From an uncultured Bdellovibrionales bacterium (GTDB lineage Bacteria > Patescibacteriota > Minisyncoccia > Moranbacterales > UBA1568): a stretch of 64,000 nucleotides of DNA. How positions within the stretch are numbered: position 1 is the first letter of the stretch; the number at the start of each line of letters is the position of its first letter. The notes beneath the pieces were generated by a model. That model did not search any database, was not told the DNA's origin, and was given only the letters and a program-made list of their open reading frames with translations. A program made the translations under genes and the position numbers. Where the stretch lies: positions 3,855 through 67,854 of the forward strand of contig CAZUWR010000001.1 of assembly GCA_964624415.1 (NCBI GenBank). Reading direction: 5' to 3'. Below, one piece after another: positions 41,708 through 59,779 of this stretch.

Positions 41708-41734
41708 GATCCTTCGACTACGCTCAGGATGACA
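41708..41734 (+). repeat. dispersed 27-nt repeat, copy 1
   Basis: GATCCTTCGACTACGCTCAGGATGACA between dnaX and tRNA-Gln; identical copy at 59189..59215 and a 20/21 inverted copy at 51643..51663. Confidence 0.6.
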
Positions 41735-41843
41735 ATCATGAGTTTTTTGTAAATATTCAGAGAAGAGACTCTGAAACGACCTGCCCGAAATGCAACGCAT
41801 AACTTTGCAGGCGGGGTTCAGAATAACATCCTCATTTCAAAAA

Positions 41844-43508
41844 TCAGGCGACGATCTCACCACCGAGAATGCTCATCGCTTCGGTCAAAATCGGGCTGAT
41901 CGGAGCTTGCGCGACGGGTGCTGATTGAGGTGTCGCGCTCTCGTCCAAGACCACTTTGATCTTTGTTTTTGACTCTAAAATTGTATCAAAAGCGCTCTCT
42001 ACTGTCAATTTGTTCTCGACGGCATTGATTTTGTCTTTGTACATCGGGAACTTGGCGCCGAGCACGACACTACCGCCATCGCCGATATACAAGGGTCTGC
42101 AATTGCCGAGAGTGAGGGCGAGCGAGGAGTTGAGCTCGCGCACTTTGGCGATGATAGATTGCCAGTGGTCTTTGACCGTGTCTATGCTTACGGCAGCTGT
42201 TTCTGTGGGTGCAGTTGTTGGTATGACCGGTTCGGCGGCTGGCGAGGTGAGGGGTTGTGTGCCGATTACATAGGGGGCTGCGGGTTCTTTAACAAGCGAT
42301 GCTTGAGTAAGTGTTGTTTGTTGTTTGTTGTTTGTTGTTAATTGTTGACTGTTCTCCGTTTTCTGTTTATTGTTCACTGTTTGCTGTTGATTGCTCACGG
42401 ACTCAGGCACAAGAAACTTGACCACAGCGATTTCGAGCGGGAACTGGGCGATGGAGGCAATACGGATTTCTTTGCGCGCCGATGAGAAGAGATCGATGAG
42501 CGTGATGATCCCGGAGGTGGTGAGGCTTTCCGCACAAGCGGTGAGCGTATCGATGTGCTCTCGCGTCATTTCGAGGGCGAGGGTGTCGGCAAGGGTGCGG
42601 TCGACACTGATAAGAAGCATCTGCCGAAGCGAGTGTAGGAGGGAATTGACGAAGATATACAGATCGGCACCAGTTTCCACCAGTTGATTGATAAGGGCGA
42701 TAGCATTTTCCATCTCCCCGTGCGTGAGATGCGCCAGAAGCGTATCGACTTTTTGTTGATCGGTGATGCCGAGTATGGAGGAGACTTCGTCGGTCGTGAT
42801 AGTTTTGTCTTCGAGACTGATGACCTGCGTGAGGAGGGATTCGGCATCGCGCATACCACCCTCGGCGGCAAGGGCGATCATCTCGAGCGCAGGCTTGTCG
42901 ATAGCTACTCCCTCGCTTGCAGCGATACCGGCGAGCTTTTCGATGATATGATCGAGCGGAAGGCGTGAGAAATCGAAGCGCTGGCAGCGGGAAAGGATGG
43001 TCTCGGGGACTTTGTGTAAAGAGGTGGTAGCGAGAATGAAGATGACATGCTTGGGTGGCTCCTCGAGTGTCTTAAGGAGCGCGTTGAAAGCGCCGATGGA
43101 GAGCATATGTACTTCATCGATGATATAGACCTTGAAGGGCGCTTGTGTTGGGAGGAGTTTGATAGAGTCGCGCAGTTCGCGAATATTGTCCACGCCGGTA
43201 TTGGAAGCGGCATCGATTTCAATTACATCAAGCGAGCTTCCGCTCGCCATAGCGAGGCAGTGAGCGCACTGAAGACAGGGTTCCACACCTTTCCGATCAA
43301 GACAGGTGACTGCTTTTGCCAAAAGCCTGGCAGTGGTGGTTTTACCGGTACCGCGCGGCCCCGTAAAGAGATAAGCCTGGCCGAGGCGATCGTTTTTGAG
43401 GGCATTGGTGATGGTTTTGATGATATGGGTTTGCCCGATGACATCGGAAAATTGTTGCGGGCGGTATTTGCGGTACAGTGTATTGGTAGACATAAGGAAT
43501 AGGGTCAA
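41844..43508 (-). CDS. dnaX: DNA polymerase III subunit gamma/tau
   Basis: YRPQQFSDVIGQ, Walker A GPRGTGKTT and zinc module CLQCAHC; start may instead be MSTNT at 43493. Confidence 0.85.
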   Translation of the reverse strand: MTLFLMSTNTLYRKYRPQQFSDVIGQTHIIKTITNALKNDRLGQAYLFTGPRGTGKTTTARLLAKAVTCLDRKGVEPCLQCAHCLAMASGSSLDVIEIDAASNTGVDNIRELRDSIKLLPTQAPFKVYIIDEVHMLSIGAFNALLKTLEEPPKHVIFILATTSLHKVPETILSRCQRFDFSRLPLDHIIEKLAGIAASEGVAIDKPALEMIALAAEGGMRDAESLLTQVISLEDKTITTDEVSSILGITDQQKVDTLLAHLTHGEMENAIALINQLVETGADLYIFVNSLLHSLRQMLLISVDRTLADTLALEMTREHIDTLTACAESLTTSGIITLIDLFSSARKEIRIASIAQFPLEIAVVKFLVPESVSNQQQTVNNKQKTENSQQLTTNNKQQTTLTQASLVKEPAAPYVIGTQPLTSPAAEPVIPTTAPTETAAVSIDTVKDHWQSIIAKVRELNSSLALTLGNCRPLYIGDGGSVVLGAKFPMYKDKINAVENKLTVESAFDTILESKTKIKVVLDESATPQSAPVAQAPISPILTEAMSILGGEIVA

Positions 43509-43592
43509 AAATCAAAGCATATACACCTAGTATAGCATATGCAAAACCTCCCTGTTCAGGAGGCTTTGTAGAAAGATGATATGTCTGCGCTC

Positions 43593-44201
43593 TTATCGTT
43601 TGAATACCCAGAGTTTGTACCCGATGAAGTTCCAGGTCAGGACGAGTATGGAAGCGGTGGCGGAAGCGATGGAAGCCCAGGCTTTGTCGGTGATATTTCC
43701 GGGAGAGGTGACGATGTTGATCATTATCCAGGTGATACCGGCATTGATAACGAGGCCGACGATACTGACGAGCCAGAATTGGAGCACTTCTTTGCTCTTC
43801 GCCTCGCCTTGTTTTTCAAATGACCAGTACTTGTTCCAGATAAAGCTATTGATGATAGCAGCATTGACCGAGACGATTTTGAATCCGAGTATCGCGTTTC
43901 CGGTCGCGATATCCGTCATATAGATGAAAACATTGAAAATACCCAAATCAATAATGGTATTGGTCACGCCGATGATGCCGAATTTGCTGAGTTGGAAAAA
44001 AAACCTGAGGCGGTTGATGCGAGAGGCGATGAAATACGCGAGACTGATGCCGAGTGTGGCGAGAAGCGCGATGATAAAAACGAAAGCGAGATAGGGGATA
44101 GGAATTTTTGATCCGAGATTGGTGATGATGATAGGAGCTAAAAGTCCGATAAAGGCGCCGTTGATAGCGGCGAATGACAGGTCACGGAGGCGTAGGGTCA
44201 T
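43593..44201 (-). CDS. GtrA-family membrane protein
   Basis: FGIIGVTNTIIDLGIFNVF GtrA-like motif; 4-6 TM helices. Confidence 0.45.
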   Translation of the reverse strand: MTLRLRDLSFAAINGAFIGLLAPIIITNLGSKIPIPYLAFVFIIALLATLGISLAYFIASRINRLRFFFQLSKFGIIGVTNTIIDLGIFNVFIYMTDIATGNAILGFKIVSVNAAIINSFIWNKYWSFEKQGEAKSKEVLQFWLVSIVGLVINAGITWIMINIVTSPGNITDKAWASIASATASILVLTWNFIGYKLWVFKR

Positions 44202-44259
44202 AGCGGTGAGGGTAAGTGTGATGAGTTAGGGATGAGGATGAGAGTGATGTGCTGTATTA

Positions 44260-45075
44260 CTATTCGCTTTTTTTCATTTCATTTTCGATTTCTTCAAGAT
44301 CCTTGACCCACTCATCGACGACCGCCTGCTTGTCTTCATCAGGAGCAGCTTCTTTGGCTTTGGATTTCTTGGCTGGTTTGGCTTTTTCTTCTGTTTCTTC
44401 TGGGTCGGTGGCTTCCGTATGAGTCGGCGCATCATCGTGCAAGTCTTCTTTCCACGCATGCATATCTTGCGGAGCAGCGTGCTCTCGAGGAGGCATCCAA
44501 TGCGACATTTTTTGGCTGCCTTTCTGGAGGATGTTTTCGATCGATGCCCAGGTGGCCTCGGTATCGCGCGGGAAGACGATAGCGACTTCATCGCCCGGCT
44601 CGCCCTTGAAATATGTGACGGATGCGAGAAGGACTTTGTATGGCCGTCCATCAGCGAGGATGCAGTAGTTGCCGTTTTCATCCTGACTGATGATACCCAA
44701 AGCGTGCTTGCGCTCGACTGGGCCGATCTGCTTGTAGATGAAAGAACCTTCGGGAGTGATGGTCAATTTGAGTACATCGCCTTCGATGAGTTTTGATTTG
44801 GAAGCGTAGTTGGCAGGGACAGGGTATTGCTTGCCATCGGTACCGAGCATGATCTGCCCGTCAAACATGCCTTCAACGACGGTGCCATCGGTCACTTCTT
44901 CTACCTTTCGTTTGCGACCGACTTTCTTCTTGCCTTCAATCTGAAGCAGCATGGCCTTGGCGCCCTGTATGGTTTTTTCCGCGCTGTTGATCATATCGCG
45001 CAGAGCCTGAATTTTTTGAGTAGCCTCTTTTTCTTTGGTTTCCGCGTCTTGAGGCGCATCGTTGTGTTGTATCAT
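44260..45075 (-). CDS. hypothetical protein with N-terminal coiled coil and acidic/Lys-rich C-terminus
   Basis: 271 aa; no family recognised; preceded by a minus-strand TGCTATACT promoter element at about 45150. Confidence 0.45.
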   Translation of the reverse strand: MIQHNDAPQDAETKEKEATQKIQALRDMINSAEKTIQGAKAMLLQIEGKKKVGRKRKVEEVTDGTVVEGMFDGQIMLGTDGKQYPVPANYASKSKLIEGDVLKLTITPEGSFIYKQIGPVERKHALGIISQDENGNYCILADGRPYKVLLASVTYFKGEPGDEVAIVFPRDTEATWASIENILQKGSQKMSHWMPPREHAAPQDMHAWKEDLHDDAPTHTEATDPEETEEKAKPAKKSKAKEAAPDEDKQAVVDEWVKDLEEIENEMKKSE

Positions 45076-45247
45076 CTTGTTTGCGGCGAATCACTTTTCA
45101 TTTCTCTAAAGTATGAAAAGCGTCTGCTTTTTTATTTTTATTTTACATATTCAGTATAGCATATTCTCTCTCAAGCGAGCAAGAGAATTTTAGTATAGAG
45201 TTTGCGACGGTAAATTTTGTAATGTATAGTGAAGTTAATTATTTATT

Positions 45248-47218
45248 ATGAATTATATGTATACACGAAGAGTATTATTGGCAGGCATCGGAGTATGTGT
45301 AGGTCTGTTTATTCTGGCGTGGTTTTGGGTAGCTCGATCGATATTTTTTCGCTCTACCGATATGACTATTCCTACGCAGAACATCTCTTCAGTTCACGTA
45401 CCTTCCTCAACGAAGGATGTAGAAAATATAACGGTGCCTGTTGGTGAATCCTCTGCATACGCACCTCCGGAAATGAAAACCTTCACAGAGTTTTCCAAGG
45501 ACGATATCCGTAAGGGGCAAGTGACATGGCAGGAACCTCAGGATATGGGTGATTTGGGGTGGACCTCTCACGATGTGTATACTGGAAAATATCAGAGTAA
45601 GAATGGGTATGCTTACTCCGGGGGTGTTAAATATTTGAAAGTTGGTACAGTGAAAGAGGGGATGTACACCGGGTCTGAAGTCATCGTCGTTTTTTCTTGG
45701 CTCTACACCGGAGATTTTCCAAGGGGTGAGTCGCCTGATATTCAGCATTACTTACGAAAAGATGGTAAGGTAACGCTGCTTACACATGCTGCTACGGCTA
45801 ATGGAGTCGAAGTTCCTTTGCCGACTTCAGATGTTAAGGCTGATGATTCCTCTCAAGATGATGATGCAAAAGCATTAATCCTGAAAGCTTCGAATGAAGT
45901 TGTTGATAATGAAACAAGAATTGAGGATTTAGCTCTGTATCCAACCGAATTCCAGGGTAGGAATAGCCGTGAAACATTTGTTAATAATGGGTATGCTGAT
46001 AGAGCGGTTTTTTCAAGTAAGGGTCTTAAGCTAGCGTTTGAAAGTTTGGAATTTGGACAGGTGTGGATGACGGATACGTCGTTCAAGGGAGAAATCCGCA
46101 CAGAGTTAAATAGTTATCAGGGTCGCGTGTATGATTCTAAGCCAGATAAAGATGGTAAAGACACTTTTAAAAGAGTAAAGAAGTATTACGATCCAGTTGT
46201 ATCGGGTGGATTTTATCTGAAACGTCCGGATGGTATTATGGAGGCGTACCGTTTGAAGTTCGATATTTTCGATATATTTGATCGACAAGGTGTACTCCAG
46301 GCGACATGGAATGATGGCTCAAAGAACACAACTTCGTATGAAGAATATCCGGGAGGATGTGGTATGACGGAGTATGTGTACGATAAGACAAACAGTGTCA
46401 GTATTAAAAAGGATTTAGTGATAATCGGAAAGACGGAGCAAGGAGATCTTTTGTATGGGTATAGGGAAAGCAATTCTGCATTGAAAAAGTATTTTGATGA
46501 AACATACTTACCGTCCCTTGGCAGGCAATCAAGTGCGGATTTGGGCATGGACAGAAATCAGCTTTGGAAAGAATTTCTGCAGAAGCGCCCAATAGTGTTG
46601 TGGCAGGATTCTTTTGGCCGCTTACTGGCGTTCTATAATACTGATACCATACCTTTGGCTGAATGCGGTAAACCGGTAGTATATCTGTACCCGGAAAAGA
46701 GTGCGGATGTTTCGGTAAGAGTCTTTCCGAGCGAAGGTGTGAGTGTTTCTGATCCTGCTTACAATGATGGTTGGGATGTTGTGGCGCAGCCAGATGGTAC
46801 CCTTATGAATAAGATGGATGGAAAAAATTACCCCTATCTATTTTGGGAAGGCGGAAGTGATACGCTTTACCAGACTCCTGAACAAGGATTTGTGGCTGCA
46901 AAAGAAGATCTGAGTGTATTTTTTGATGAGAAATTAAGCCAGCTTGGACTCTCAGCTAAAGAATCATCTGATTTCAAAGAATTTTGGATTCCGAAGATGA
47001 CCGAGAAAAGTAAGCCTTACTATTTCATTACTTTTCTTTCTCGTGCACAAATTGATAGATTGGCTCCTCTTGCAATAAATCCGAAGCCAGATACGATTAT
47101 CCGTGTCATGATGGATTATGAAGGACTGGATTCGTGGAAGGCTGTGCCGGGTTATGCTATCAAAACACCGAAGAGAGAAGGGTTTACCGCGGTTGAATGG
47201 GGGGGAAGAATGAAATAA
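45248..47218 (+). CDS. hypothetical large membrane-anchored extracytoplasmic protein
   Basis: 656 aa with a single N-terminal TM helix; 8 nt upstream of the Memo/CapA-like gene (likely an operon). Confidence 0.5.
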   Translation: MNYMYTRRVLLAGIGVCVGLFILAWFWVARSIFFRSTDMTIPTQNISSVHVPSSTKDVENITVPVGESSAYAPPEMKTFTEFSKDDIRKGQVTWQEPQDMGDLGWTSHDVYTGKYQSKNGYAYSGGVKYLKVGTVKEGMYTGSEVIVVFSWLYTGDFPRGESPDIQHYLRKDGKVTLLTHAATANGVEVPLPTSDVKADDSSQDDDAKALILKASNEVVDNETRIEDLALYPTEFQGRNSRETFVNNGYADRAVFSSKGLKLAFESLEFGQVWMTDTSFKGEIRTELNSYQGRVYDSKPDKDGKDTFKRVKKYYDPVVSGGFYLKRPDGIMEAYRLKFDIFDIFDRQGVLQATWNDGSKNTTSYEEYPGGCGMTEYVYDKTNSVSIKKDLVIIGKTEQGDLLYGYRESNSALKKYFDETYLPSLGRQSSADLGMDRNQLWKEFLQKRPIVLWQDSFGRLLAFYNTDTIPLAECGKPVVYLYPEKSADVSVRVFPSEGVSVSDPAYNDGWDVVAQPDGTLMNKMDGKNYPYLFWEGGSDTLYQTPEQGFVAAKEDLSVFFDEKLSQLGLSAKESSDFKEFWIPKMTEKSKPYYFITFLSRAQIDRLAPLAINPKPDTIIRVMMDYEGLDSWKAVPGYAIKTPKREGFTAVEWGGRMK

Positions 47219-47225
47219 AGCGGAT

Positions 47226-48836
47226 ATGAAAATATTGAGTGACCGCAAAATCATATACTATCTGTTGTTGGCTGGTGGCATAATCGCTACCAGCCTTTCG
47301 TACGCTTTTTTGAAAAGTGTTGATATTCAATCAAGCCTTACAAATGGAACGGAAAAAAAGAGCAGTGAACAATCTTTGTCAATCGTTTCTTTTATTACGC
47401 CCCATCATCTCGCTGCTAAAGAGTTTATGCATAAGATTTTTCATGATGTCAGCGATGCGGTCGGAGGTGATTCAATCGATCGTGTTATCTTGATAAGTCC
47501 GAATCATTTTAATATCGGAAAAAGTTGGGTGATCGGTTCTGAAAAAAGTTGGGAGACTCCCTTTGGTATGTTGTATGCGGATGCTGGTATGAGCAGTCAT
47601 CTTAAGGATGGGGTTTTTTTTGGCCAAGATATTTTTGAGCGTGAACATGGGATAAGGAATATCCTACCCTTCGTAAAAGAGTATTTTCCACAGGCTGCTG
47701 TAGTACCATTGGCTTTACGCGATGGATTTTCTGATGAAGGGGTAGATGCATTAGCACAAAGACTTGCACAATTATCAAGTCCGCATACGATCCTCATTGT
47801 TTCAGCTGACTTTTCTCATTACTTAGACTGGAATTTTTCTCGTTTTCATGATGCTAAAGCTAAAGAGATTCTCAGTCGTATGGATATGGATCATATCGGG
47901 TTACTGGACGTGGATTGCGCATCATGTTTGCGTGTCGCTATGCAATATTCAAGAATTCGCCATGCTGATCATTTTCAATTTGTTTCCCGATCGAGTTCTT
48001 TGGAGCTGGCTGGGTCAAATAGAGTCGGCGAAGAAACAAGTCATATAACCGGGTATTTTTCTTCGCAACTATCGCAGTCAGATGATGCATTGGATACAAC
48101 ACGTCTTCTGTTTTCCGGACAAGTCACACCGCAGGCCATGACTGAAAGTGCAAGAAGAATGTTTATGGGTCAAGATTTCAATATTTTTGAACAGGATGGC
48201 AGTATTGTATCGAATGTTTTCGATGACACTTCTTACAACTCGTCTTTGCATGTTTTGCAAAATTATTCACTGATGGATGATAAAGAATTATCTTCCGCAC
48301 GGATAATACACGGAAAACGGTTTGTGTTTGTTGATGCTGATATGCGAATTTCCGATGATGCCTCCGCGCAACGCGTATTGAATGAGGTGAGCGAGGCAAA
48401 ACAGCACAGTGATTTTGTGGTGGCTTTGTGGAGCAAAGATAAACAATCCCGAGGTTCTATGGGAAATGCTGACGCACAAAGGAAGCAGGCTCATGATCTT
48501 ATCGATGCAGGAGCGGATGTTGTGATTGGTTTGCGGGCTCAGAATTTTGAACCGATCGAGATATATAATAATAAAGCGATTTTTTCTTCTTTGGGCTATA
48601 ATGCCTCGCAGTGTAGGCTTTACAATCGTATGTGTGCAGGCGTGCAACTAGGGATAGGTTTTTCTTCGGATGCGATAGAATATGTTCTTATGCCCATTAT
48701 GAAGCAAAAAGATGGGCAAATTGTATTAGCAAAAAGTCCGGAAAGGGATATTATCCTTAAAAAGTTATCGGATACAAGGATCAGTAATTCGATGAAGCAA
48801 TCACTGCAAGAGGGGATGTTTACCTTACATAAATAG
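47226..48836 (+). CDS. Memo-like (AmmeMemoRadiSam protein B family) domain fused to a degenerate CapA/PGA_cap-like domain
   Basis: N-terminal half has Memo motifs (ITPHHLAAKEF, DRVILISPNH, SADFSHY); C-terminal half resembles CapA (LIDAGADVVIG...IFSSLGYN) but lacks the HWG/HHPH metal-binding histidines. Confidence 0.5.
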   Translation: MKILSDRKIIYYLLLAGGIIATSLSYAFLKSVDIQSSLTNGTEKKSSEQSLSIVSFITPHHLAAKEFMHKIFHDVSDAVGGDSIDRVILISPNHFNIGKSWVIGSEKSWETPFGMLYADAGMSSHLKDGVFFGQDIFEREHGIRNILPFVKEYFPQAAVVPLALRDGFSDEGVDALAQRLAQLSSPHTILIVSADFSHYLDWNFSRFHDAKAKEILSRMDMDHIGLLDVDCASCLRVAMQYSRIRHADHFQFVSRSSSLELAGSNRVGEETSHITGYFSSQLSQSDDALDTTRLLFSGQVTPQAMTESARRMFMGQDFNIFEQDGSIVSNVFDDTSYNSSLHVLQNYSLMDDKELSSARIIHGKRFVFVDADMRISDDASAQRVLNEVSEAKQHSDFVVALWSKDKQSRGSMGNADAQRKQAHDLIDAGADVVIGLRAQNFEPIEIYNNKAIFSSLGYNASQCRLYNRMCAGVQLGIGFSSDAIEYVLMPIMKQKDGQIVLAKSPERDIILKKLSDTRISNSMKQSLQEGMFTLHK

Positions 48837-50339: not shown

Positions 50340-50765
50340 ATGGCGAAGAAAATCAAGACGATTATCAAGTTGCAAATCCAGGGCGGAAAGGCGAATCCAG
50401 CTCCTCCAGTCGGACCAGCACTCGGTCAGCACGGTCTCAATATCCAGGATTTTTGCGCGAAGTTCAATGACGCGACCCGGGATAAGATGGGCGATGTGAT
50501 TCCTGCAGAAATCACCGTATACGATGATCGCACTTTCACGTTCGTACTCAAGACTCCTCCTGCTGCTGAGCTGCTCAAGAAGGCTGCCAAGGCAACTAAG
50601 GGTGCTGCTAATCCGCTCAAAGAAAAGGTGGGAACGGTTACAACAGAGCAGTTGCGAGAAATCGCGGAGACCAAGATGGAGGATTTGAACGCGAACGATG
50701 TGGATATGGCGATGCGAATCGTCGCCGGAACTGCCCGTTCGATGGGTATTAAGGTAAGCGAGTAG
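50340..50765 (+). CDS. rplK: 50S ribosomal protein L11
   Basis: [33 protein letters not shown]-terminus. Confidence 0.9.
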
Positions 50766-50942: not shown

Positions 50943-51632
50943 ATGATACGAGGAAAAAAATACCGCGCAGCCGTTGAGAAGATCGAGAAGGAAAAAGACT
51001 ATTCTTTGGAAGAAGCTTTGACTTTCGTGAAGAGCAATGTGCTTGCAAAATTCGACGAGTCTGTTGAAGTGCACTTTAAGCTCGGCATCAACCCAAGCAA
51101 GGGTGAGGAGCAGGTCCGCTCTACCGCTATTTTGCCGCACGGTGTCGGACGATCCAAGAAGGTGGCCGTCATCACGACGACCAAGATGTCTGAGGCCAAG
51201 GAGGCTGGCGCCGATCTGATCGGTGGCGAAGAATTGATCGAGGATATCAAAAACGGGAAAGTGGTCGCCGGTGTCGATTTTGATATCGTTGTGGCTACTC
51301 CGGAAGCGATGCCGAAGCTCGCGAGTGTCGCGAAAATCCTCGGACCGAAAGGTTTGATGCCGAACCCGAAGACGGAAACGGTGACGACCAAGGTCAAGGA
51401 CGTCGTGGATGCCTTGAAGAAGGGAAGTAAGGTAAGCTTCAAAAACGACAAGAGCGGAAACATCCATCAGGTGATCGGTAAGCTTTCATTTGATGTCGCG
51501 CAGCTCAAAGACAATTATCAGGCAGTATTCGATGTTCTGCAAAAAGCCAAGCCCGAGACGATGAAGGGTTGCTATATCCAGTCTATCGCTCTGTGCTCGA
51601 CTATGGGACCGGCTGTCAAAATCAAGGCGTAA
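50943..51632 (+). CDS. rplA: 50S ribosomal protein L1
   Basis: 229 aa; conserved L1 motifs. Confidence 0.9.
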   Translation: MIRGKKYRAAVEKIEKEKDYSLEEALTFVKSNVLAKFDESVEVHFKLGINPSKGEEQVRSTAILPHGVGRSKKVAVITTTKMSEAKEAGADLIGGEELIEDIKNGKVVAGVDFDIVVATPEAMPKLASVAKILGPKGLMPNPKTETVTTKVKDVVDALKKGSKVSFKNDKSGNIHQVIGKLSFDVAQLKDNYQAVFDVLQKAKPETMKGCYIQSIALCSTMGPAVKIKA

Positions 51633-51642
51633 CGTTTGGCGC

Positions 51643-51663
51643 TGTCATACTGAGCGTAGTCGA
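51643..51663 (-). repeat. dispersed repeat, copy 3 (inverted, 20/21 core)
   Basis: TGTCATACTGAGCGTAGTCGA just after rplA; reverse complement of the 41708 and 59189 core with one mismatch. Confidence 0.45.
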
Positions 51664-51748
51664 CCGCGTGTCGCCTTTAGCTTTAGCGGTGGCACAAGGA
51701 TCTTAAGTTGATAGAAGATGTCAAAATGAATTCGGCATGACAGACAAG

Positions 51749-51775
51749 AATCGCTCTTTTGGGAGCGGTTTTTTG
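51749..51775 (+). terminator. intrinsic terminator downstream of rplA
   Basis: ATCGCTC-TTTTGG-GAGCGGT followed by a T6 run. Confidence 0.5.
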
Positions 51776-51804
51776 TTGACAATCAAGTGATAGTGGGTAA
51801 TAAT
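51776..51804 (+). promoter_or_regulatory. sigma-70 promoter
   Basis: TTGACA, 17 nt, AATAAT, directly after the terminator. Confidence 0.4.
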
Positions 51805-51863
51805 GGAATATCCATTCGTGGATAGGCAGACAGTTATTTTCAAATTAAATAGAGGGGGATGAT

Positions 51864-52947: not shown

Positions 52948-53125
52948 ATAGCTGCCAATGAGCGGTACGGTCGAAAGCGAGGTGTCTTATATAAGCACCT
53001 TGCTTTTTTCTTTCTACTCGAAAGTGAGAGCATCTTTTCGCCTGATGAGGGCGGTTTTTTGTTTTGTCCGGATATGATACAATAGGTGAGTAGAGTCAAA
53101 TATAAGCCTTTAAAGAGATACTGCT

Positions 53126-53806
53126 ATGGCGCATTTTGAGATAGAAATCAAAAGTTTACTGGGTGATGTGGCTAATGCCGACGCTTTTCGCGAGAAGCTT
53201 TTCGCCTTGCCGGACGGCGCGAAATTGAAAGGGAAAAACTCCCAATTGAATCACTACTTCATCCTGGACGATGCTCAGACATTGCTTGATGCCGTGGCGC
53301 ATTTTTTTTCCGAGGAACATCAGGCGAGTTTGAAAAAAGTTTTGCTAGAAGGAAAGAAGCATTCTATTCGGACACGCGAAGTCGATGGGAAAGTCCTGCT
53401 CGTCGTGAAAGCATCCATTGGTGATGATGGATCGAGCTCGAACGGCATATCGAGAATGGAATTTGAGCAGGAAGTCCCGGGCGTTTCTTTGGTGGCATTG
53501 GACGAGGTGCTCTTGAAGGCTGGTCTGAAGTATCAGGCGAAGTGGTCTCGGGAGCGCGAGGAATACACGCTGGGCGATGTGTCTGTGTGTCTGGATAAGA
53601 ATGCCGGCTACGGGTATCTGGTCGAATTTGAGAAGGTGATCCACGATGCGAGCGAAGCGGAGGAGACAAAGCGATCGCTCTTTGAGTTGATGGAGAAGCT
53701 TGATGTCGAAGAATTACCGCAGGATCGATTGGAGAGGATGTTCGCCCATTACAATGCGCACTGGGATGAATACTACGGGACAGATAATGTGTTTACTATA
53801 GAATAA
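53126..53806 (+). CDS. CYTH-domain (triphosphate tunnel metalloenzyme) protein
   Basis: N-terminal EIEIK motif diagnostic of CYTH/CyaB-like proteins; 226 aa. Confidence 0.5.
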   Translation: MAHFEIEIKSLLGDVANADAFREKLFALPDGAKLKGKNSQLNHYFILDDAQTLLDAVAHFFSEEHQASLKKVLLEGKKHSIRTREVDGKVLLVVKASIGDDGSSSNGISRMEFEQEVPGVSLVALDEVLLKAGLKYQAKWSREREEYTLGDVSVCLDKNAGYGYLVEFEKVIHDASEAEETKRSLFELMEKLDVEELPQDRLERMFAHYNAHWDEYYGTDNVFTIE

Positions 53807-53834
53807 ACAATAAATCATTTATTACAGTACGACT

Positions 53835-54398
53835 ATGTTTCTTTCGGATATCGATATACGCAAAGCGGTTGAGGATGGACGGATAACTATCAAGGATTTC
53901 GATGAGACGCGGTTGCAGCCGGCCAGTTACGATGTGCTCTTGGGGAATAAGTTTGTGATCACCGATGCTCACTCTACGGAGGCGATCGATCCAGTGAAAA
54001 AGGTTTTTCCCAAGACACGGGAGATTATCGTGGAGGACGGCGAGAGTTTCGTGCTGCATCCGCATATGTCGGTGCTCGGTACGCTCAAAGACTATGTCGG
54101 CACAAAAGAATTCCTCATTCAGCTGTCGGGCAAGAGCAGCTTGGCGCGTATAGGCCTGGCGGTGCACAATACGGCTGGCATCATCAATCCGGGTCATTTC
54201 CTGCATATGACGCTCGAGCTCGCCAATTTCAATACCGTGCCGATTATTTTGCGGCCTGGTATGCCGATCGCGCAGTTCACTTTCTCGGAACTGACGCATT
54301 CGGTGCAGCACGATTACAGCGAGGTCGGTCGGTTTAACGGCGATAACTGGAAAAAGAATTTCGCCCCTCCGAAGAAAAGAAAAGCCGTCAAAAAATAA
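53835..54398 (+). CDS. dcd: dCTP deaminase (dUTPase superfamily)
   Basis: 187 aa; trimeric dUTPase-fold motifs (GKSSLARIGL, IINPGH). Confidence 0.75.
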   Translation: MFLSDIDIRKAVEDGRITIKDFDETRLQPASYDVLLGNKFVITDAHSTEAIDPVKKVFPKTREIIVEDGESFVLHPHMSVLGTLKDYVGTKEFLIQLSGKSSLARIGLAVHNTAGIINPGHFLHMTLELANFNTVPIILRPGMPIAQFTFSELTHSVQHDYSEVGRFNGDNWKKNFAPPKKRKAVKK

Positions 54399-54417
54399 CT
54401 GATTTTCAAACACCATT

Positions 54418-55413
54418 ATGACTCCAAATAAACATCCTGAGCAGCAGTATCTGGATCTGTTGCAAGACATTCTCGACAATGGCATCAAACAGACGGATAA
54501 AGGCACGGGCGATGTGACATACAGCGTCTTTGGTCGGCAGATCCGATTCGATTTGAAAGACGGGTTCCCATTGCTCACAACCAAGAAAGTGTATTGGAAG
54601 GGTGTGCTGCATGAGTTGTATTGGTTCTTGTCAGGACAATCGAATGTGGAATACCTCATCGATAACGATGTGCATATTTGGGATGATTATCCATACAAGA
54701 TATATCGTGAGCGTGTGCTCAAAGAGGGTTTGCAAGAAATGACCAAAGAGGAATTTGTGGAGAAGGTAAAGACTGACGATGTGTTTGCAGAGAAGTATGG
54801 CACTCTGAAGCATATCTACGGTGAAATGTGGCGGCACTGGCCAGCTAAGGACGGCCGCGGAATCGACCAGCTTCGTTGGGCGGTCAACGAAATCACACAG
54901 GATCCGGATTGTCACAATGCTATTGTGAATTCATGGAATCCTGAATACTTGTACGCGATGGCAAAACCGGAAGAAGCATCGCGATTCCCGATCTGCCACA
55001 GTATGTATCAGCTCAATGTCAAAGATGGCAAAGTATCGCTTCAACTCTATCAACGATCGGCTGATATGTTTTTGGGTGTGCCGTTCAATATCGCCAGCTA
55101 TGCTTTGCTTGTATTGATTATTGCGCGAGCGACAGGTTATGAGCCTGGGGAATTCATCCACACGTTTGGGGATGTGCATATTTACGGTGATCATATCGAG
55201 CAGGTAAAAGAACAATTGGCGCGCAATCCTCATCCGTTTCCAACAGTAAATATCAGTGAAGACGTGAAAGATATCGATGACTTCCGACCTGAACACGCTA
55301 CGCTTTCGAACTATGTCTCGCATGACCCTATCAAAGCGAAGCTTGCCGCAGTGGGTGGTGTGACGACCGATGACTGGAAGCAGCATGTTGGTAAGAAAGA
55401 TAAAAATGCCTAA
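54418..55413 (+). CDS. thyA: thymidylate synthase (long form with insertions)
   Basis: active-site region CHSMYQLNV and DMFLGVPFNIASYALL; 331 aa. Confidence 0.85.
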   Translation: MTPNKHPEQQYLDLLQDILDNGIKQTDKGTGDVTYSVFGRQIRFDLKDGFPLLTTKKVYWKGVLHELYWFLSGQSNVEYLIDNDVHIWDDYPYKIYRERVLKEGLQEMTKEEFVEKVKTDDVFAEKYGTLKHIYGEMWRHWPAKDGRGIDQLRWAVNEITQDPDCHNAIVNSWNPEYLYAMAKPEEASRFPICHSMYQLNVKDGKVSLQLYQRSADMFLGVPFNIASYALLVLIIARATGYEPGEFIHTFGDVHIYGDHIEQVKEQLARNPHPFPTVNISEDVKDIDDFRPEHATLSNYVSHDPIKAKLAAVGGVTTDDWKQHVGKKDKNA

Positions 55414-55434
55414 GTTTGTATCAAAAGAACCTCT

Positions 55435-55929
55435 ATGAGACTTTCTATCATCGCCGCCATCGGCAAGCATCGCGAACTGGGCAAAAACAATGCGCTTCTG
55501 TGGGATATACCCGAGGATATGCGTCATTTTCGCGAGCTCACCACCGGGCATACGGTGCTGATGGGGCAGAAGACCTATGAATCCATCGGAAGGCCTCTGC
55601 CGAATCGCCGCAATATCATCCTGACGATAGACAAAAGTTTCACGGCCGAGGGGTGCATCATTTGCTATTCGCTGGAAGAAGCCTTGGCGAAAGCGCGGGA
55701 AATTGAGCCGGAAGAGGCGTTTGTTATCGGCGGAGGCTCAGTCTATGCGCAGGCGCTCCCTTTCGCGGAGAGACTGTACCTGACCCTGGTGGATGGTACA
55801 TTCGAAGCAGATGTCTTTTTCCCTTATTACAAAGCCTTTTCTCGGGTTATCGAGCGCAGGGATGGTGGTGATGAGAATTATAAGTATTCCTTTATTGTAT
55901 TGGAAAAGGTGGTTAAAGATTGTAAATAA
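55435..55929 (+). CDS. folA: dihydrofolate reductase
   Basis: IAAIGKHRELGKNNALLW and VLMGQKTYESIG motifs; 164 aa; 21 nt after thyA. Confidence 0.85.
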   Translation: MRLSIIAAIGKHRELGKNNALLWDIPEDMRHFRELTTGHTVLMGQKTYESIGRPLPNRRNIILTIDKSFTAEGCIICYSLEEALAKAREIEPEEAFVIGGGSVYAQALPFAERLYLTLVDGTFEADVFFPYYKAFSRVIERRDGGDENYKYSFIVLEKVVKDCK

Positions 55930-55953
55930 GCTCTAGTTGTGATATTTTAGGAA

Positions 55954-56277
55954 GTGAAGACCCTGTTAAATTTGAGGTGTATATGTATGGGAGAATTGGT
56001 TTGGAGAAGAATTATTGTTATATCATTGGTGAGTGTGATTATAGGTGGTTTTGCCGAAATCATTCTTATGCCAGTATTTTATAGGATCAGCTACTCTTTT
56101 GGTGGAGTGACCATGTTTTATTTTCCAGTTATTGCGAGTATACTTGGCGCTGTCATCTTATCATGCAGGAAGACTGATCGACACCGCATTCTTACTGGTA
56201 TCGTAACCTTTCTCATTTCGATCGCACTATTTTTTTTGTCTTTTCCTATCCTTTGGTATCTTTATTTTGGACTTTAG
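55954..56277 (+). CDS. hypothetical small membrane protein (3 TM)
   Basis: 107-aa hydrophobic ORF. Confidence 0.35.
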   Translation: MKTLLNLRCICMGELVWRRIIVISLVSVIIGGFAEIILMPVFYRISYSFGGVTMFYFPVIASILGAVILSCRKTDRHRILTGIVTFLISIALFFLSFPILWYLYFGL

Positions 56278-56304
56278 TTTTATTAAGCTGTTATCTGAAC
56301 TTTT

Positions 56305-57774
56305 ATGAAATACACACCTGTCATCGGCATGGAAGTGCATGTCGAATTGAAGACCAAATCCAAGATGTTTTGCTCGTGCAAGAACGGCTTGGGACTGGAG
56401 AAAACCCCCAATGTCAATATCTGCCCCGTGTGCACCGCGCAGCCGGGGACACTGCCCGTGCCCAATCGCCAGGCGATAGAATTCGTGCAGAAGGCCGGAC
56501 TGGCACTCAATTGTGATATACGCCTCTTGTCGAAATTCGATCGCAAGAACTATTTTTACCCGGATATTCCCAAGGGCTATCAGATTTCCCAGTACGATGA
56601 GCCGCTGTGCGAGAAAGGCGTCATCAGTATCGACGGGAAGGACATCCGCATCACGCGTATCCATATGGAGGAGGATACCGGGAAATCCAATCATCCCAAT
56701 GGCGCAGACTATACACTGGTAGATTTCAATCGTGCCGGTGTGCCGCTGATGGAATTGGTGACCGAGGCAGACTTGTCGAATGGCAAGGAAACTCGCGCTT
56801 TCTGTCAGCGCCTGCAGCAGACGCTGCGCTATATCGGTATCTCGGATGCGGATATGGAGAAAGGGCAGATGCGTTGCGAGGTGAACATATCCCTCCACAA
56901 GGAGGGTGCCGATCGCTTGAGCGGTACCAAAGCGGAGATCAAAAATATCAATTCATTCCGCGCTGTCGAACGGGCTATCGATTTCGAAATCAAGCGCCAG
57001 TCGGAGCTTTTGGATGCGGGAGAAAAAGTGGTGCAAGAAACTCGCGGGTGGGATGAAAACAAGAGCGCGACCGTCTCGCAGCGCAAGAAGGAATCCGCGC
57101 ATGACTATCGCTACTTCCCGGAGCCGGATATCCCGCCGCTTCACTTCACGCAAGACTATGTGGAGGCATTGCGCGCTTCTTTGCCGGAGCTTCCGCAGGC
57201 CAAAGAAGTGCGTTTCCAGGAGGAATACAAGCTCAATGTCGATGACGCGATTATGCTCGCTTCCGATAAGGATTTGGCGGCATATTTTGAAAATGTCATT
57301 ACCGAACTTTCAGCCAAGATCGATGCCAAAGAAGTGAGCGCGACCCTGGAGAAACTTGTCAAGCTCACCGCTAACTATATCATTTCAGAACTGCGCAAGC
57401 ACTTTATCAAGACCGGCGAAACCATCCGCGATATCCGTATCACTCCCGAGAACTTCGCCGAGCTCATCGGTTTCATCGGGGATGGCAAGATCAACTCCAG
57501 TGCCGCCCAGACGGTACTTGAAATTATGTATCAGGGTGAGGATAGCGATCCATCGCATATCATCGAGGAAAAAAACCTGGGACAGATGAGTGATGCCTCT
57601 GCGCTCGAAACCGTCGTAGATGCTGTCTTGGCAGCCAATCAGCAGTCGGTGGAGGACTACAAGAATGGCAAACAAGCGGCCTTCCAGTTCCTTATCGGGC
57701 AGGTGATGAAGGAAACCAAAGGCAAGGCCAATCCGCAGGTGGCGGGCGAATCGCTCAAGAAGCGTCTTCAGTAG
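56305..57774 (+). CDS. gatB: Asp-tRNA(Asn)/Glu-tRNA(Gln) amidotransferase subunit B
   Basis: MKYTPVIGMEVHVEL N-terminus; 489 aa with a conserved GatB/YqeY C-terminal domain. Confidence 0.9.
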   Translation: MKYTPVIGMEVHVELKTKSKMFCSCKNGLGLEKTPNVNICPVCTAQPGTLPVPNRQAIEFVQKAGLALNCDIRLLSKFDRKNYFYPDIPKGYQISQYDEPLCEKGVISIDGKDIRITRIHMEEDTGKSNHPNGADYTLVDFNRAGVPLMELVTEADLSNGKETRAFCQRLQQTLRYIGISDADMEKGQMRCEVNISLHKEGADRLSGTKAEIKNINSFRAVERAIDFEIKRQSELLDAGEKVVQETRGWDENKSATVSQRKKESAHDYRYFPEPDIPPLHFTQDYVEALRASLPELPQAKEVRFQEEYKLNVDDAIMLASDKDLAAYFENVITELSAKIDAKEVSATLEKLVKLTANYIISELRKHFIKTGETIRDIRITPENFAELIGFIGDGKINSSAAQTVLEIMYQGEDSDPSHIIEEKNLGQMSDASALETVVDAVLAANQQSVEDYKNGKQAAFQFLIGQVMKETKGKANPQVAGESLKKRLQ

Positions 57775-57795
57775 ATGTGCGATACAAAGAATACA

Positions 57796-57828
57796 AAAAC
57801 CGCTTTCCGGCTCAGGAGAGCGGTTTTT
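57796..57828 (+). terminator. intrinsic terminator after gatB
   Basis: AAAAACCGCT / AGCGGTTTTT stem around a 14-nt loop. Confidence 0.55.
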
Positions 57829-57851
57829 AAGTACACTTTTGTCACTATCTC

Positions 57852-57880
57852 TTGACAAAATGAGGAGAGGGTGCTATAGT
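57852..57880 (+). promoter_or_regulatory. consensus sigma-70 promoter of the small-ORF island
   Basis: TTGACA, 17 nt, TATAGT. Confidence 0.5.
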
Positions 57881-57939
57881 GAAGGAGCAGTACCCAAAAG
57901 ACAATAATTACATAAAAATCAAAAAACAGGAGAAGTGCT

Positions 57940-58038
57940 ATGAGCACGTTTTTAGAATTAGTATTTCTAGGGGTTATTTTTTTCTTTGTATTGAAGGCGC
58001 ATAAAAATAATACGGCGCCCTTAAATACTGATGAGTAG
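57940..58038 (+). CDS. small hydrophobic peptide (32 aa, one TM helix, charged C-terminus)
   Basis: AGGAG SD 6 nt upstream; MSTFLELVFLGVIFFFVLKAHKNNTAPLNTDE; below the ORF-track cutoff. Confidence 0.35.
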   Translation: MSTFLELVFLGVIFFFVLKAHKNNTAPLNTDE

Positions 58039-58047
58039 GAGAACGAA

Positions 58048-58224
58048 ATGACTGTAAAACAAATACTGGCTAAATTTTCAGCAAAAGAAGAGGGTGATAA
58101 TGGGAATTTTGGACTGGAAGATGCTCAAGAGCACAATGTCCAAGAGCATCAAAAAACTCTTCCCGCATTGCTCTTGCGGGATGCTGAAAATTTCAAAGAT
58201 TACCAGTGGCAACACTTTTTTTAA
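58048..58224 (+). CDS. small acidic protein (58 aa)
   Basis: AGGAGA SD; translationally close-coupled to the 32-aa ORF. Confidence 0.35.
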   Translation: MTVKQILAKFSAKEEGDNGNFGLEDAQEHNVQEHQKTLPALLLRDAENFKDYQWQHFF

Positions 58225-58309
58225 ATAGAGCTAGGCGCCGCGTACTGAACTTCAGTCCGGCGCCAAAAATTTTATTTGACAACTTTCTTAGGAGGAGTAT
58301 ACTTGAAAC

Positions 58310-58382
58310 TAATGAAAAGAAAGCTCAACATTTTAGCAGTCTATACGAAGTGATATCATCACCCCTGTGGGTGATTTTTTTT
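58310..58382 (+). ncRNA. candidate small RNA (about 70 nt) defined by a promoter and an intrinsic terminator
   Basis: TTGACA (58276), 17 nt, ATACTT, then about 50 nt, then hairpin ATCACCC-CTGT-GGGTGAT followed by a T9 run; contains only a 13-codon ORF. Confidence 0.3.
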
Positions 58383-58447
58383 GAGCCGATTTTCGCACTT
58401 GTTGTTTAACAACAGAATAATCAAATATTGAGTAAGGAGAATGTGTT

Positions 58448-58741
58448 ATGAATGATTCTAAAATGAGACAACCATCATTAAACTTTCTGGTAGAATCTCC
58501 AGCTTGTGACCTGATGCCCGATGGTGGTTGGTGTGATGTGCCTTTTCTACGGAGTTTACTCCCTTCAGAGCAAAGATGTAATTGCGCAAAGTACGGAAAG
58601 TGCATTATACGGGAATTGCCAAAAATCGATAATCATTCTATGGTTACGATACTTTTTTATAATCAAGCACAGGGAACCCCTGTTCCTGTTGATAAAATTC
58701 GATCAGCAATCAGTTTATATTGTGAAGCTCACAGTGTTTGA
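58448..58741 (+). CDS. small Cys-rich protein (97 aa)
   Basis: AAGGAG SD; 8 Cys including CNCAKYGKC; no family recognised. Confidence 0.4.
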   Translation: MNDSKMRQPSLNFLVESPACDLMPDGGWCDVPFLRSLLPSEQRCNCAKYGKCIIRELPKIDNHSMVTILFYNQAQGTPVPVDKIRSAISLYCEAHSV

Positions 58742-58752
58742 ATGGCACAATA

Positions 58753-58786
58753 AAAGGTGATGATATAAAATTCATCACCTTTTAGC
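58753..58786. terminator. bidirectional terminator between the Cys-rich ORF and miaA
   Basis: AAAGGTGATGA-TATAAAAT-TCATCACCTTT hairpin with flanking T runs. Confidence 0.55.
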
Positions 58787-58789
58787 TTT

Positions 58790-59779
58790 TTAGAAGAAGA
58801 TCTCTGTTTCCGAGGCAGCCTCTATCCAGTGGATATCAGCGCCCTGTTTTTCCCATCGGCGCAGCCAAGTGCGCTGTCTTTTGGCATAGTGGACGATGTC
58901 GAAGAAAAGTTTTTCTTTCATTGTCGGTTCGTCGATGTTTCCCTGCAAGAAGCGAGCTATCCATCGGTATTCAAGACCGAAGGCCTCCAGTTTTTCCCAT
59001 GCCGCGCCATGCTCGTGGAGGCGCCGCACTTCTTCGATCATGCCCTGATCGAAGCGTTCGTCCAGGCGTTTTCGTATATTCGCATCCAGGATGTCTTTTG
59101 GAGGATTGAACGCGATAATGAAATAGTTGCTTTGATTGATATATTGAGGTTTGGGATGTGTCATTCCGATCGTAGCGGAGGAATCCGAGATCCTTCGACT
59201 ACGCTCAGGATGACATATCATGGGGTTGCTCTGCAGTGAAGGGACTTTTCCAAGTGATTGTACGATTTCCAGAGCCCGGATAAGCCGGATGGGATTGTTT
59301 CTATCGATAGTTAGGGCTCTTTCCGGATCGATGGCTTGCAGTTTTGCAAAGAGTTCTTGGATAGAAAGGTGCGAAAGTTCTTTGCGCAGTATGAGATCGG
59401 GCAAGACCTCCGGGAAGGATTGGTTATCGATGAGCGCCTGCGCCCAAAAAAGCGTACCTCCGCAGAGGATGGGGAGTTTGCCGCGGCTTCGGATGTCTCG
59501 GATGATTGCTTGGGCATCACATTTGAAGTCCGTGACATTGTACTCCTCGTGCGGCTCGCGAATATCGAGGAGGTGATGCTGAGCGAGCGACTGCTCTTCG
59601 GTAGTCACCTTACCCGTCCCGATATCCATTCCGCAGTACACCTGTCGGCTGTCGGCTGAAATAATCTCGCCATCGTATTTGAGGGCCAGTGAAATTGCCA
59701 AAGAAGACTTGCCCGAGGCTGTCGGCCCGACGATGGCAAGGGTTTGTGATCTGTCGAATTTTCTTGACGTATGATTCAT
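58790..59779 (-). CDS. miaA: tRNA dimethylallyltransferase
   Basis: P-loop GPTASGKSS and DSRQVY motif; 329 aa; carries an approximately 20-aa insertion (CHPERSRRISDSSATIGMTHP) encoded by the dispersed repeat. Confidence 0.8.
   Translation of the reverse strand: MNHTSRKFDRSQTLAIVGPTASGKSSLAISLALKYDGEIISADSRQVYCGMDIGTGKVTTEEQSLAQHHLLDIREPHEEYNVTDFKCDAQAIIRDIRSRGKLPILCGGTLFWAQALIDNQSFPEVLPDLILRKELSHLSIQELFAKLQAIDPERALTIDRNNPIRLIRALEIVQSLGKVPSLQSNPMICHPERSRRISDSSATIGMTHPKPQYINQSNYFIIAFNPPKDILDANIRKRLDERFDQGMIEEVRRLHEHGAAWEKLEAFGLEYRWIARFLQGNIDEPTMKEKLFFDIVHYAKRQRTWLRRWEKQGADIHWIEAASETEIFF
59189..59215 (+). repeat. dispersed 27-nt repeat, copy 2 (inside the miaA coding sequence, in frame)
   Basis: identical to 41708..41734; on the miaA strand it reads CHPERSRRI. 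Confidence 0.6.

Follow-up and report, generated by a model that had tools for sequence, protein, structure and literature searches.

A probable CGTC/TGTC-tagged REP-type DNA hairpin inserted in frame in miaA and dnaE of a candidate phyla radiation bacterium

We analysed a 64-kb stretch of contig CAZUWR010000001.1 from an uncultured bacterium of the candidate phyla radiation (CPR), referred to below as the window, in which a short repeat lies between dnaX and a tRNA-Gln gene, after rplA, and inside the reading frames of miaA and dnaE. The repeat is likely (probability about 0.75) a DNA hairpin of the repetitive extragenic palindrome (REP) type, belonging to the CGTC/TGTC-tagged superfamily and resembling the Ssn-related motifs (SRM) and the NTS of Neisseria. 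It would be the target of an Ssn-type nuclease, and in miaA and dnaE it would be an in-frame insertion tolerated as a loop. The assignment to this superfamily was made because the YGTC tag, the stem starting with AT, the inverted dimers with outward tags and the depletion from open reading frames (ORFs) match the published description (PMC3733652).

A first-pass annotation of the window had listed two identical copies of the repeat and one inverted 20/21 copy of its core, and these were all recovered. An exact search placed the 27-mer GATCCTTCGACTACGCTCAGGATGACA at 41708-41734 and 59189-59215 on the plus strand, and the identity of the two copies reaches 28 nt (41707-41734 and 59188-59215). 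The 21-nt core has a 20/21 match on the minus strand at 51643-51663. Neither the 27-mer nor the core was matched in 100 dinucleotide-preserving shuffles, and the gene coordinates agree with the annotated context of tRNA-Gln, dnaX, rplA and miaA (Table 1). The repeat unit is 26 nt long and is best read on the opposite strand as (T)GTCATCCTGAGCGTAGTCGAAGGATC(T), with the formula YGTC-AT-NNN-GA-x-CGNAGY-x'-GA-N'N'N'-AT-C; the G·A-type unit sequence is also written TGTCATTCCGAGCGAAGCCGAGGAATC. The AGATCC that had been described as an extra flank belongs to the unit itself, and the shared (A/TA)TCATG flank is present in the window copies but its ATCATG is not conserved in the orthologue.

The hairpin unit and its insertions in miaA and dnaE

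The unit is a conserved hairpin supported by covariation. From 5' to 3' it consists of an unpaired YGTC tag, the A-T and T-A pairs that start the stem, three covarying pairs, a tandem G·A/A·G, one covarying pair, a C(GNA)G mini-loop and an unpaired C. The stem has eight positions, two of them G·A/A·G, and the loop has 6 nt (CGNAGY). Tandem G·A mismatches and C(GNA)G loops are hallmarks of unusually stable hairpins of DNA, not of RNA. With a relaxed pattern in which the stem triplets were left free, 252 units were found in the listed loci, and the triplets were exact complements in 244 of them. The triplets occurred in 11 different Watson-Crick combinations, and the loop-closing pair alternates between G..C and C..G. 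Over 76 distinct units, standard pairs made up 95.9% of the pair cells, compared with 80.7% in shuffles, and 94 compensatory cells were observed against 27 in shuffles, a value reached by none of 500 shuffles. Shifting the 3' stem partner abolished the covariation signal. The hairpin ATCCT-N12-AGGAT, which the annotation had drawn from the window copies, is a real stem and covaries across the family.

The search pattern itself prescribed the GTC, the 3' C and the AT...AT positions, and their constancy among the collected units, including the 76, is not independent evidence. The three stem pairs after AT...AT covary in register with it, and matches of a covariance model (R1, built from the collected family units) in independent loci retain both GTC and the 3' C. 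The base preceding GTC is T in 188/248 units and C in 54/248, and the base following ATC is T in 190/248, giving a consensus tail C-T. A single unit is a weak hairpin in the nearest-neighbour model (as RNA, z about -0.5).

The family is widespread. A stricter pattern, applied to a collection with one genome per species, matched at least 120 loci; this search shows taxonomic breadth, and the source genome of the window was not among the matches listed. A degenerate pattern matched 45 stretches in viral contigs. Among the matches listed, the family was found in viral contigs and in more than 15 bacterial phyla. The hosts include Alpha- and Gammaproteobacteria, Bdellovibrio-like bacteria, Clostridia and Bacteroidota (isolates of Pedobacter, Hymenobacter and Tamlana), as well as Acidobacteriota, Chloroflexota, Planctomycetota, Verrucomicrobiota, Kiritimatiellae, Spirochaetes and Actinobacteria (Bifidobacterium). 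Melainabacteria, the Deinococcus-Thermus group, Vulcanimicrobiota, Saccharibacteria, Peribacteria and other Patescibacteria were also among them. In the listed loci 23% of the units lie within ORFs of at least 150 aa, compared with 80% of the bases covered by such ORFs. Close pairs of units (n = 39) were inverted with the tags outward in 19 cases, inverted the opposite way in 5 and tandem in 15 (14 +,+ and 1 -,-).

When R1 was run over the window, three strong matches were obtained, at 59185-59218 (-), 41704-41737 (-) and 59156-59189 (+), with E values from 2e-9 to 2e-7, together with weak matches at 51640-51668 (+), 51713-51745 (-) and 61693-61725 (-). All units in the window carry GTC 5' of the palindrome and C directly 3' of it, and their tag reads TGTC. 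A generic scan of the window for GTCAT followed by any hairpin stayed at chance level, with 16 matches against a mean of 8 in shuffles, and its other matches were not counted. The unit of the first copy stands in sense orientation between dnaX and tRNA-Gln, 27 nt upstream of the tRNA.

A dimer of the unit is inserted in miaA and a related single unit in dnaE, both in stop-free frames and at variable linker positions. The annotation had placed one copy inside the miaA frame, encoding CHPERSRRI. This reading is correct but was incomplete, since that copy is one half of a 57-nt inverted dimer and a further unit lies in dnaE. The second, diverged unit GTCATTCCGATCGTAGCGGAGGAATC was found with the degenerate pattern at 59160-59185 (+), inverted and 3 nt from the first. 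The frame across the insert reads ...MICHPERSRRISDSSATIGMTH..., or over a longer stretch ...NPMICHPERSRRISDSSATIGMTHPK..., and the MiaA of the window keeps the residues at every column that is invariant across 25 aligned homologues. As DNA, the dimer folds into one long hairpin of -16 kcal/mol (z = -3.7), and as RNA into one of -28 to -36 kcal/mol (z = -4.4 to -5.2); in both cases none of 200 shuffles folded as well. A stop occurs in two of a unit's six reading frames (TGA, from ATGAC on one strand and from CTGA in the CCT subtype); units that persist in an open frame have therefore passed a selection filter, which is no evidence of design.

The nearest homologues of this MiaA are from Moranbacteria and other Patescibacteria, and one of them, an NCBI entry from a contig of 272 kb, is 100% identical. 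In the alignment of 25 homologues, the CHPERSRRISDSSATIGMT segment is located in a linker that varies naturally and connects the helical insertion domain to a core strand, and it was found only in the window MiaA and in one orthologue, P0002 (74% identical). Alignment with MiaA orthologues, which the annotation had proposed as a check, thus identified the segment as an insertion that is common to this orthologue and absent from the others listed. We also aligned the window miaA by codons with the DNA of P0002 (locus L166) and P0003 (locus L167). L166 carries the dimer at the same codon, in the same orientation and with a spacer of equal length (3 nt), and its counterpart of the left unit has the canonical C at the x position. 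The miaA of L167, otherwise a close relative with a DnaE 89% identical, has an empty site. Judging from these alignments, units have been gained or lost between close relatives.

An additional in-frame dimer, not present in the window miaA, occupies a variable N-terminal site of the L166 miaA (about 1140-1225). It consists of TGTCATCCTGAGCTTGTCGAAGGATCT, a 15-nt spacer and AGATCCCTCGACTACGCTCGGGATGACA, and encodes CHPELVEGS...SLDYARDDK. Peptides of the kind expected from translated units of several subtypes were present in 9 of the 120 closest MiaA homologues, all at the same two variable sites; examples are CHCEGTEAI, CHPALDAGS...SGMT and IPAFAGMT. They represent independent gains that recurred at permissive positions. 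An AlphaFold2 model of the window MiaA had a mean predicted local distance difference test (pLDDT) score of 79.9 and a predicted template modelling (pTM) score of 0.73. Confidence is low at residues 1-4, 52-56 and 183-215; the third segment, with pLDDT < 50, includes the 19 inserted residues. The insert is thus predicted to sit in a flexible, disordered loop. The annotation had suggested an exapted coding insertion; the orthologue alignment bears out the insertion, whereas nothing indicates a gained function for the segment in its predicted disordered loop.

The unit in dnaE differs in type from the miaA and dnaX units, and is missing from the DnaE of L167 (89% identical). It was written both as AGTCATCCCGTACTTGATGCGGGATCCGG and as AGTCATCCCGTACTTGATGCGGGATCC, and it fits the SRM pattern as published. 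Both in miaA and in dnaE the copies lie in variable, low-confidence loops of otherwise intact genes. Adjoining the dnaE unit, a TGTTG-rich low-complexity repeat at 61727-61767 translates to a Gln/Asn/Thr-rich linker, ...QTVNNQQPTTNGQ...; a second TGTTG-rich low-complexity repeat lies in dnaX at 42312-42401.

Linkage to small GIY-YIG genes and the alternative explanations

In many genomes, those of CPR bacteria among them, units and small GIY-YIG genes are physically linked. Among the 120 listed loci that were selected by the repeat, six have a GIY-YIG gene of 91-105 aa within about 80 nt of a unit, and in several of these six the layout is a unit(+) just upstream, the gene, and a unit(-) just downstream. 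These genes were detected by tblastn with approximate consensus sequences and a small hidden Markov model (HMM), after a GIY...YIG regular expression had missed them. Clustering of ORFs of at least 120 aa around the repeats (165 loci) gave no recurrent neighbour, with a cut-off that excluded the nuclease of about 95 aa. The unit-adjacent proteins consist of a single PF01541 domain (E = 5e-19). The Tyr, Tyr and Glu columns are invariant in five aligned proteins, and in the protein of locus L147 these residues are at 6/17/64 by manual count, corresponding to the residues mutated in SsnA (Y6, Y17, E64).

The association was also examined in reverse, with 80 metagenome loci encoding homologues of the unit-adjacent GIY-YIG proteins. 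A strict-pattern unit was adjacent to the gene in 30 of the 80 loci and present on both sides in 15, and R1 gave 164 matches in 221 kb, distributed over 54 of the loci. Around this GIY-YIG clade the G·A subtype was found 79 times and units of the published SRM pattern 10 times, and the shuffled controls gave 0 for both. Patescibacteria commonly encode small GIY-YIG proteins of this type, and in the CPR loci L248, L250 and L252 the gene is directly flanked by units, which in L248 lie 9 nt upstream and 1 nt downstream of it. The annotation had considered a small REP/MITE-like element and a possible target of a site-specific nuclease, and both ideas agree with a tagged REP superfamily that includes single-stranded DNA targets of SsnA (PMC11893778) and whose unit type flanks GIY-YIG genes elsewhere. 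In L248, a Magasanikbacteria contig, a 17-nt direct repeat ATAATTTGTATAAATTA (1446-1462 and 1839-1855) brackets the unit/GIY-YIG/unit cassette, together with a short outer inverted repeat. The direct repeat could be the target-site duplication of a mobile cassette or a duplicated promoter.

SsnA of Neisseria is a 94-aa single-domain GIY-YIG nuclease of CDD family cd10448 that binds and cuts the oriented NTS CGTCATTCCCGCGMAVGCGGGAATCYRG in single-stranded DNA only and does not bind RNA (Chenal et al. 2025, PMC11893778). Cleavage is controlled by the three bases on the 5' side of the palindrome, and no base matters more for binding than the C that directly follows it on the 3' side (PMC11893778). 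Genes for ssn occur across phyla flanked by SRM, in an NTS-ssnA-NTS layout like that of an insertion sequence (IS), and the Ssn system of Neisseria lowers the integration of transforming DNA (PMC11893778). By analogy with SsnA and NTS, a small single-domain nuclease of the GIY-YIG type, about 90-105 aa long, would bind the single-stranded hairpin described here, read the GTC tag and the 3' C, and nick a few nucleotides upstream. The nuclease gene would sit between two inverted units as an IS-like cassette, and the units would multiply genome-wide as singlets, inverted dimers and arrays, being spread by the nuclease itself or by host repair after the nick.

Several observations weigh against this interpretation. 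No GIY-YIG or Ssn-like gene was found within the 64-kb window by tblastn and HMM, and the PDB sequences closest to the unit-associated GIY-YIG proteins are UPF0213 proteins (1ZG2, 1YWL). The SRM pattern as published, HGTCWYN(0-2)YYVSBRHN(0-5)WNVSBRGN(0-2)RNCYNB (PMC11893778), fits none of the 76 G·A-type units, and the G·A subtype is therefore outside the biochemically tested range. At miaA there is no target-site duplication or other direct trace of insertion. The dimer is also more conserved between the window and L166 than its surroundings, with a nucleotide identity of 94.7% compared with 80.8% for the rest of miaA, and of 89% compared with 65% at third codon positions (Fisher p = 0.026). 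This suggests DNA-level constraint, gene conversion or protein-level selection, which fit equally. Furthermore, we infer from the Neisseria work that an Ssn-type nuclease binds and cleaves the single-stranded hairpin, and we likewise infer that the miaA and dnaE insertions are translated, most likely as tolerated loops.

The explanation that competes most with a DNA target is that the unit acts mainly as RNA, the transcribed stem-loop stabilising or terminating upstream messages and the nuclease association being secondary. It is compatible with a REP-type DNA hairpin, and we regard it as unlikely. The single units in the window are all in sense orientation and inside or just downstream of genes (dnaX, rplA, dnaE), REPs are generally found downstream of ORFs (PMC3733652), and the dimer is a strong RNA hairpin at -28 to -36 kcal/mol. 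The single unit is nevertheless weak as an RNA hairpin, dimers hold units in both orientations, and the tandem G·A with its C(GNA)G loop is of the DNA type. The recurrent neighbour is a gene for a DNA nuclease, and SsnA does not bind RNA (PMC11893778). A known structured RNA family, which the annotation had weighed as a source of the match, did not turn up: the Rfam search of the window at gathering level gave tRNA-Gln only, and weak matches at the miaA site had E > 1. Searches of the literature with sequence or peptide strings such as GTCATCCTGAGCG and HPERSRRI gave nothing relevant.

Mobilisation by other enzymes is far less probable. A classical GTAG-type REP or REP doublet (REPIN), moved by a REP-associated tyrosine transposase (RAYT, a Y1 HUH transposase of the IS200/IS605 kind), would share the architecture of a tag followed by a hairpin and the inverted doublets that form long hairpins, and the T-loop variant of our unit even contains GTAG. 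The tag, however, is YGTC and not GTAG or GTGG, and the loop base that would make GTAG varies (A, C, G or T). No large gene recurred as a neighbour in the 165 loci, the small gene that did is GIY-YIG and not PF01797, and CGTC REPs have no RAYT according to the literature (PMC3733652). The case is just as poor for a conventional MITE (miniature inverted-repeat transposable element) moved by a DDE transposase, for which the two 26-nt inverted arms at the ends of the miaA insert would be the terminal repeats. The insert of 57 nt is below the usual size (70-300 bp) and lacks the target-site duplication. The same arm also stands alone at 41707-41734, and the covariation within a single arm indicates that the arm itself is the functional hairpin unit. 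There is next to no chance that the miaA segment is an old part of MiaA that resembles the intergenic copy by chance or convergence, although the region is a naturally variable linker. This was already refuted by 28/28 nt equal to the intergenic copy with 0 matches in 100 shuffles; in addition, the segment occurs in one listed orthologue only and the same sequence family in more than 15 phyla.

Four other candidates were rejected. The units are not in spacer arrays, which excludes a CRISPR repeat; they have no R''/R' boxes, which excludes attC, and no T-loop, which excludes a tRNA-derived fragment. A sequencing artefact was ruled out since the units are diverse, covary and are present in isolate genomes (Pedobacter, Hymenobacter).

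Beyond the preferred reading of a tagged REP-type hairpin, we put forward a tentative and rather doubtful extension. The G·A-mismatch unit and the flanked GIY-YIG clade of 90-105 aa might form a separate pan-bacterial Ssn/SRM specificity class, which the published SRM definition misses and which in CPR repeatedly inserts in frame into essential genes (miaA, dnaE). CPR bacteria presumably rely on DNA uptake, and at such loci the class might police incoming single-stranded DNA. A widespread subtype with tandem G·A, a GNA mini-loop and its own nuclease clade could offer a new specificity of single-strand DNA cleavage.

The Ssn/SRM and CGTC-REP systems would be extended to Patescibacteria. The filled and empty sites in miaA and dnaE suggest that selfish hairpins inserted in essential enzymes are tolerated even when the genome is minimal. 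The odd peptides CHPERS..., ...GMT and ...RNDx in CPR and many other predicted proteins would be translated hairpin repeats instead of protein motifs, and should be handled accordingly by gene callers and in alignments.

Further units and features in the window

A pair of units after rplA was probably damaged by insertion and decay (Table 1). The copy begins 11 nt past the rplA stop codon in sense orientation, and 51643-51703 is probably a unit that was split by an insertion. Together with the degenerate partner at 51713-51745, it can be read from the sequence as a decayed inverted dimer downstream of rplA. Internally interrupted units recur elsewhere in the family.

Table 1. Units and neighbouring genes in the 64-kb window (R1, covariance model of the unit)
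Feature	Position	Strand	Basis or remark
Whole inverted dimer in miaA, 57 nt, tags outward, 19 in-frame codons (MiaA residues 189-207)	59159-59215	-	Folding and codon alignment with orthologues
Right unit of dimer, TGTCATCCTGAGCGTAGTCGAAGGATCT, sense with miaA, encodes CHPERSRRI, same as the 41707-41734 copy	59188-59215	-	R1 46.7 bits, E = 2.4e-9
Spacer CGA, 3 nt, separating the two inverted units	59186-59188	.	Direct reading
Left unit of dimer, TGTCATTCCGATCGTAGCGGAGGAATC, TCC/GGA stem subtype, antisense to miaA, encodes ...DSSATIGMT	59159-59185	+	R1 38.6 bits, E = 2.4e-7
Probable REP/SRM unit, single, G·A type, TGTCATCCTGAGCGTAGTCGAAGGATCT	41707-41734	-	Exact pattern match; R1 45.9 bits, E = 3.9e-9
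Single unit in dnaE, canonical CGTC/SRM type, AGTCATCCCGTACTTGATGCGGGATCCGG, in frame, encodes SHPVLDAGS	61694-61722	-	Weak R1 match; fits published SRM pattern
5' two-thirds of a unit (20 nt), TGTCATACTGAGCGTAGTCGA	51643-51663	+	20/21 match; R1 13 bits, 3' stem missing
33-nt insert (51664-51696), then AGGATCT (51697-51703) matching the absent 3' end of the unit	51664-51703	+	Direct reading
Degenerate inverted partner, GTCTGTCATGCCGA...GACATCTTCT	51713-51745	-	R1 16.3 bits, E = 0.068, weak match
miaA, tRNA dimethylallyltransferase, 329 aa, intact ORF	58790-59779	-	PF01715/PF01745 homologues; PDB MiaA 2QGN, E = 9e-49
dnaE, C-terminal part of DNA polymerase III alpha	61477-63996	-	Syntenic L167 gene has DNA_pol3_alpha Pfam domains
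tRNA-Gln (UUG)	41608-41680	-	Neighbour of first copy; only Rfam match in window
dnaX	41844-43508	-	Neighbour of first copy
rplK	50340-50765	+	Gene context
rplA	50943-51632	+	Gene context

Units with a hairpin insert of 30-40 nt within or beside the loop were seen in L252 (about 1410-1475) and in the window (51644-51703), and R1 also gives matches 41-76 nt long. Loop extensions are apparently tolerated, in agreement with the extendable loop published for the SsnA target (PMC11893778). Straight after the decayed pair, at 51751-51776 (+), a stem cgctcttttgggagcg is followed by a T-run and is probably the terminator of the rplK-rplA unit. The genes rplJ and rplL are not downstream of rplA, and the next ORFs there have no Pfam match.

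Two other repeats were observed in the window. A leader of about 100 nt is present at 59795-59896 (+) and 61030-61130 (+), its two window copies being 80% identical, and a third copy lies in L167 at 2884-2976 (-). Both window copies stop at a small ORF's start codon, and these ORFs are mutually unrelated. The copies have similar predicted multi-stem folds without an Rfam match, also at permissive E-values, and the leader is a candidate cis-regulatory RNA. A 60-nt direct repeat at 33149-33208 and 34173-34232 (+), 78% identical and 1 kb apart, contains promoter-like boxes, TTGACA...TATAA(A/T), and a short hairpin.

Comparison with known systems

The CGTC REP superfamily was defined by Di Nocera, De Gregorio and Rocco in 2013 by an unpaired CGTC tag, often TGTC and also CCTC (PMC3733652). 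The stems nearly always open with complementary A-T and T-A, the unpaired tail is short, and inverted dimers are preferred; the elements are mainly intergenic, downstream of ORFs, and have no dedicated RAYT (PMC3733652). Neisseria dRS3 and the Rickettsia palindromic elements RPE-4 and RPE-6 are part of the superfamily (PMC3733652). In-frame singlets and dimers of 20-30 aa, such as VIPAKAGIS...IPAFAGMT, were described in housekeeping genes, among them dnaE and those for tRNA synthetases and enzymes of tRNA modification (PMC3733652).

The units analysed here share with CGTC-1 to CGTC-4 REPs the CGTC/TGTC tag, the A-T and T-A start of the stem, a short unpaired tail, and frequent inverted dimers with one preferred orientation. 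They are likewise mostly intergenic and downstream of ORFs, with occasional in-frame singlets and dimers in housekeeping genes, among them dnaE and tRNA-modification genes. Compared by text description, the published stems have 8-9 bp and the loops 4-5 nt, whereas in the units here two of the eight stem positions are non-Watson-Crick and the loop has 6 nt. The published tail consensus is CCA and the tail here C-T, and the published hosts belong to 5 phyla without CPR.

The likeness to SRM and to NTS-SsnA extends to the 5' (C/T)GTCAT tag, the palindrome starting with AT and the C directly after it. Both are orientation-dependent multicopy hairpins with a wide phylogenetic spread, and both have a small single-domain GIY-YIG gene between inverted units, which was seen here in other genomes. 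In contrast, the miaA and dnaX units have a 5-bp stem with the tandem G·A mismatch and the CGNAGY loop, the host is a CPR bacterium, and there is no ssn gene within the window. Intragenic sites make up two of the five found here, compared with 2% of NTS in N. meningitidis. REPIN/RAYT systems, the GTAG REPs of gammaproteobacteria, also have inverted hairpin doublets and a single-copy gene for a single-stranded DNA hairpin enzyme flanked by its own repeats, but differ in the GTAG tag and in using a Y1 HUH enzyme instead of the GIY-YIG fold and chemistry.

The outcome in miaA and dnaE is the same as for the Rickettsia palindromic elements. Those are also in-frame palindromes in conserved protein genes, absent from orthologues and occupying permissive positions on the surface, in a host-dependent bacterium with a small genome. 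They differ in sequence subtype, in size, with about 100-150 nt for RPE-1 compared with the 57-nt dimer here, and in that expression of the decorated proteins was demonstrated for Rickettsia. Tagged REPs inserted in frame, and the likely Ssn/SRM mechanism, have already been published, and the present case adds no new principle. What is new is the CPR host, the distinct and widespread G·A-mismatch subtype that the SRM pattern misses and that has its own nuclease clade, and the repeated entry of in-frame units into MiaA, at two sites, and into DnaE.

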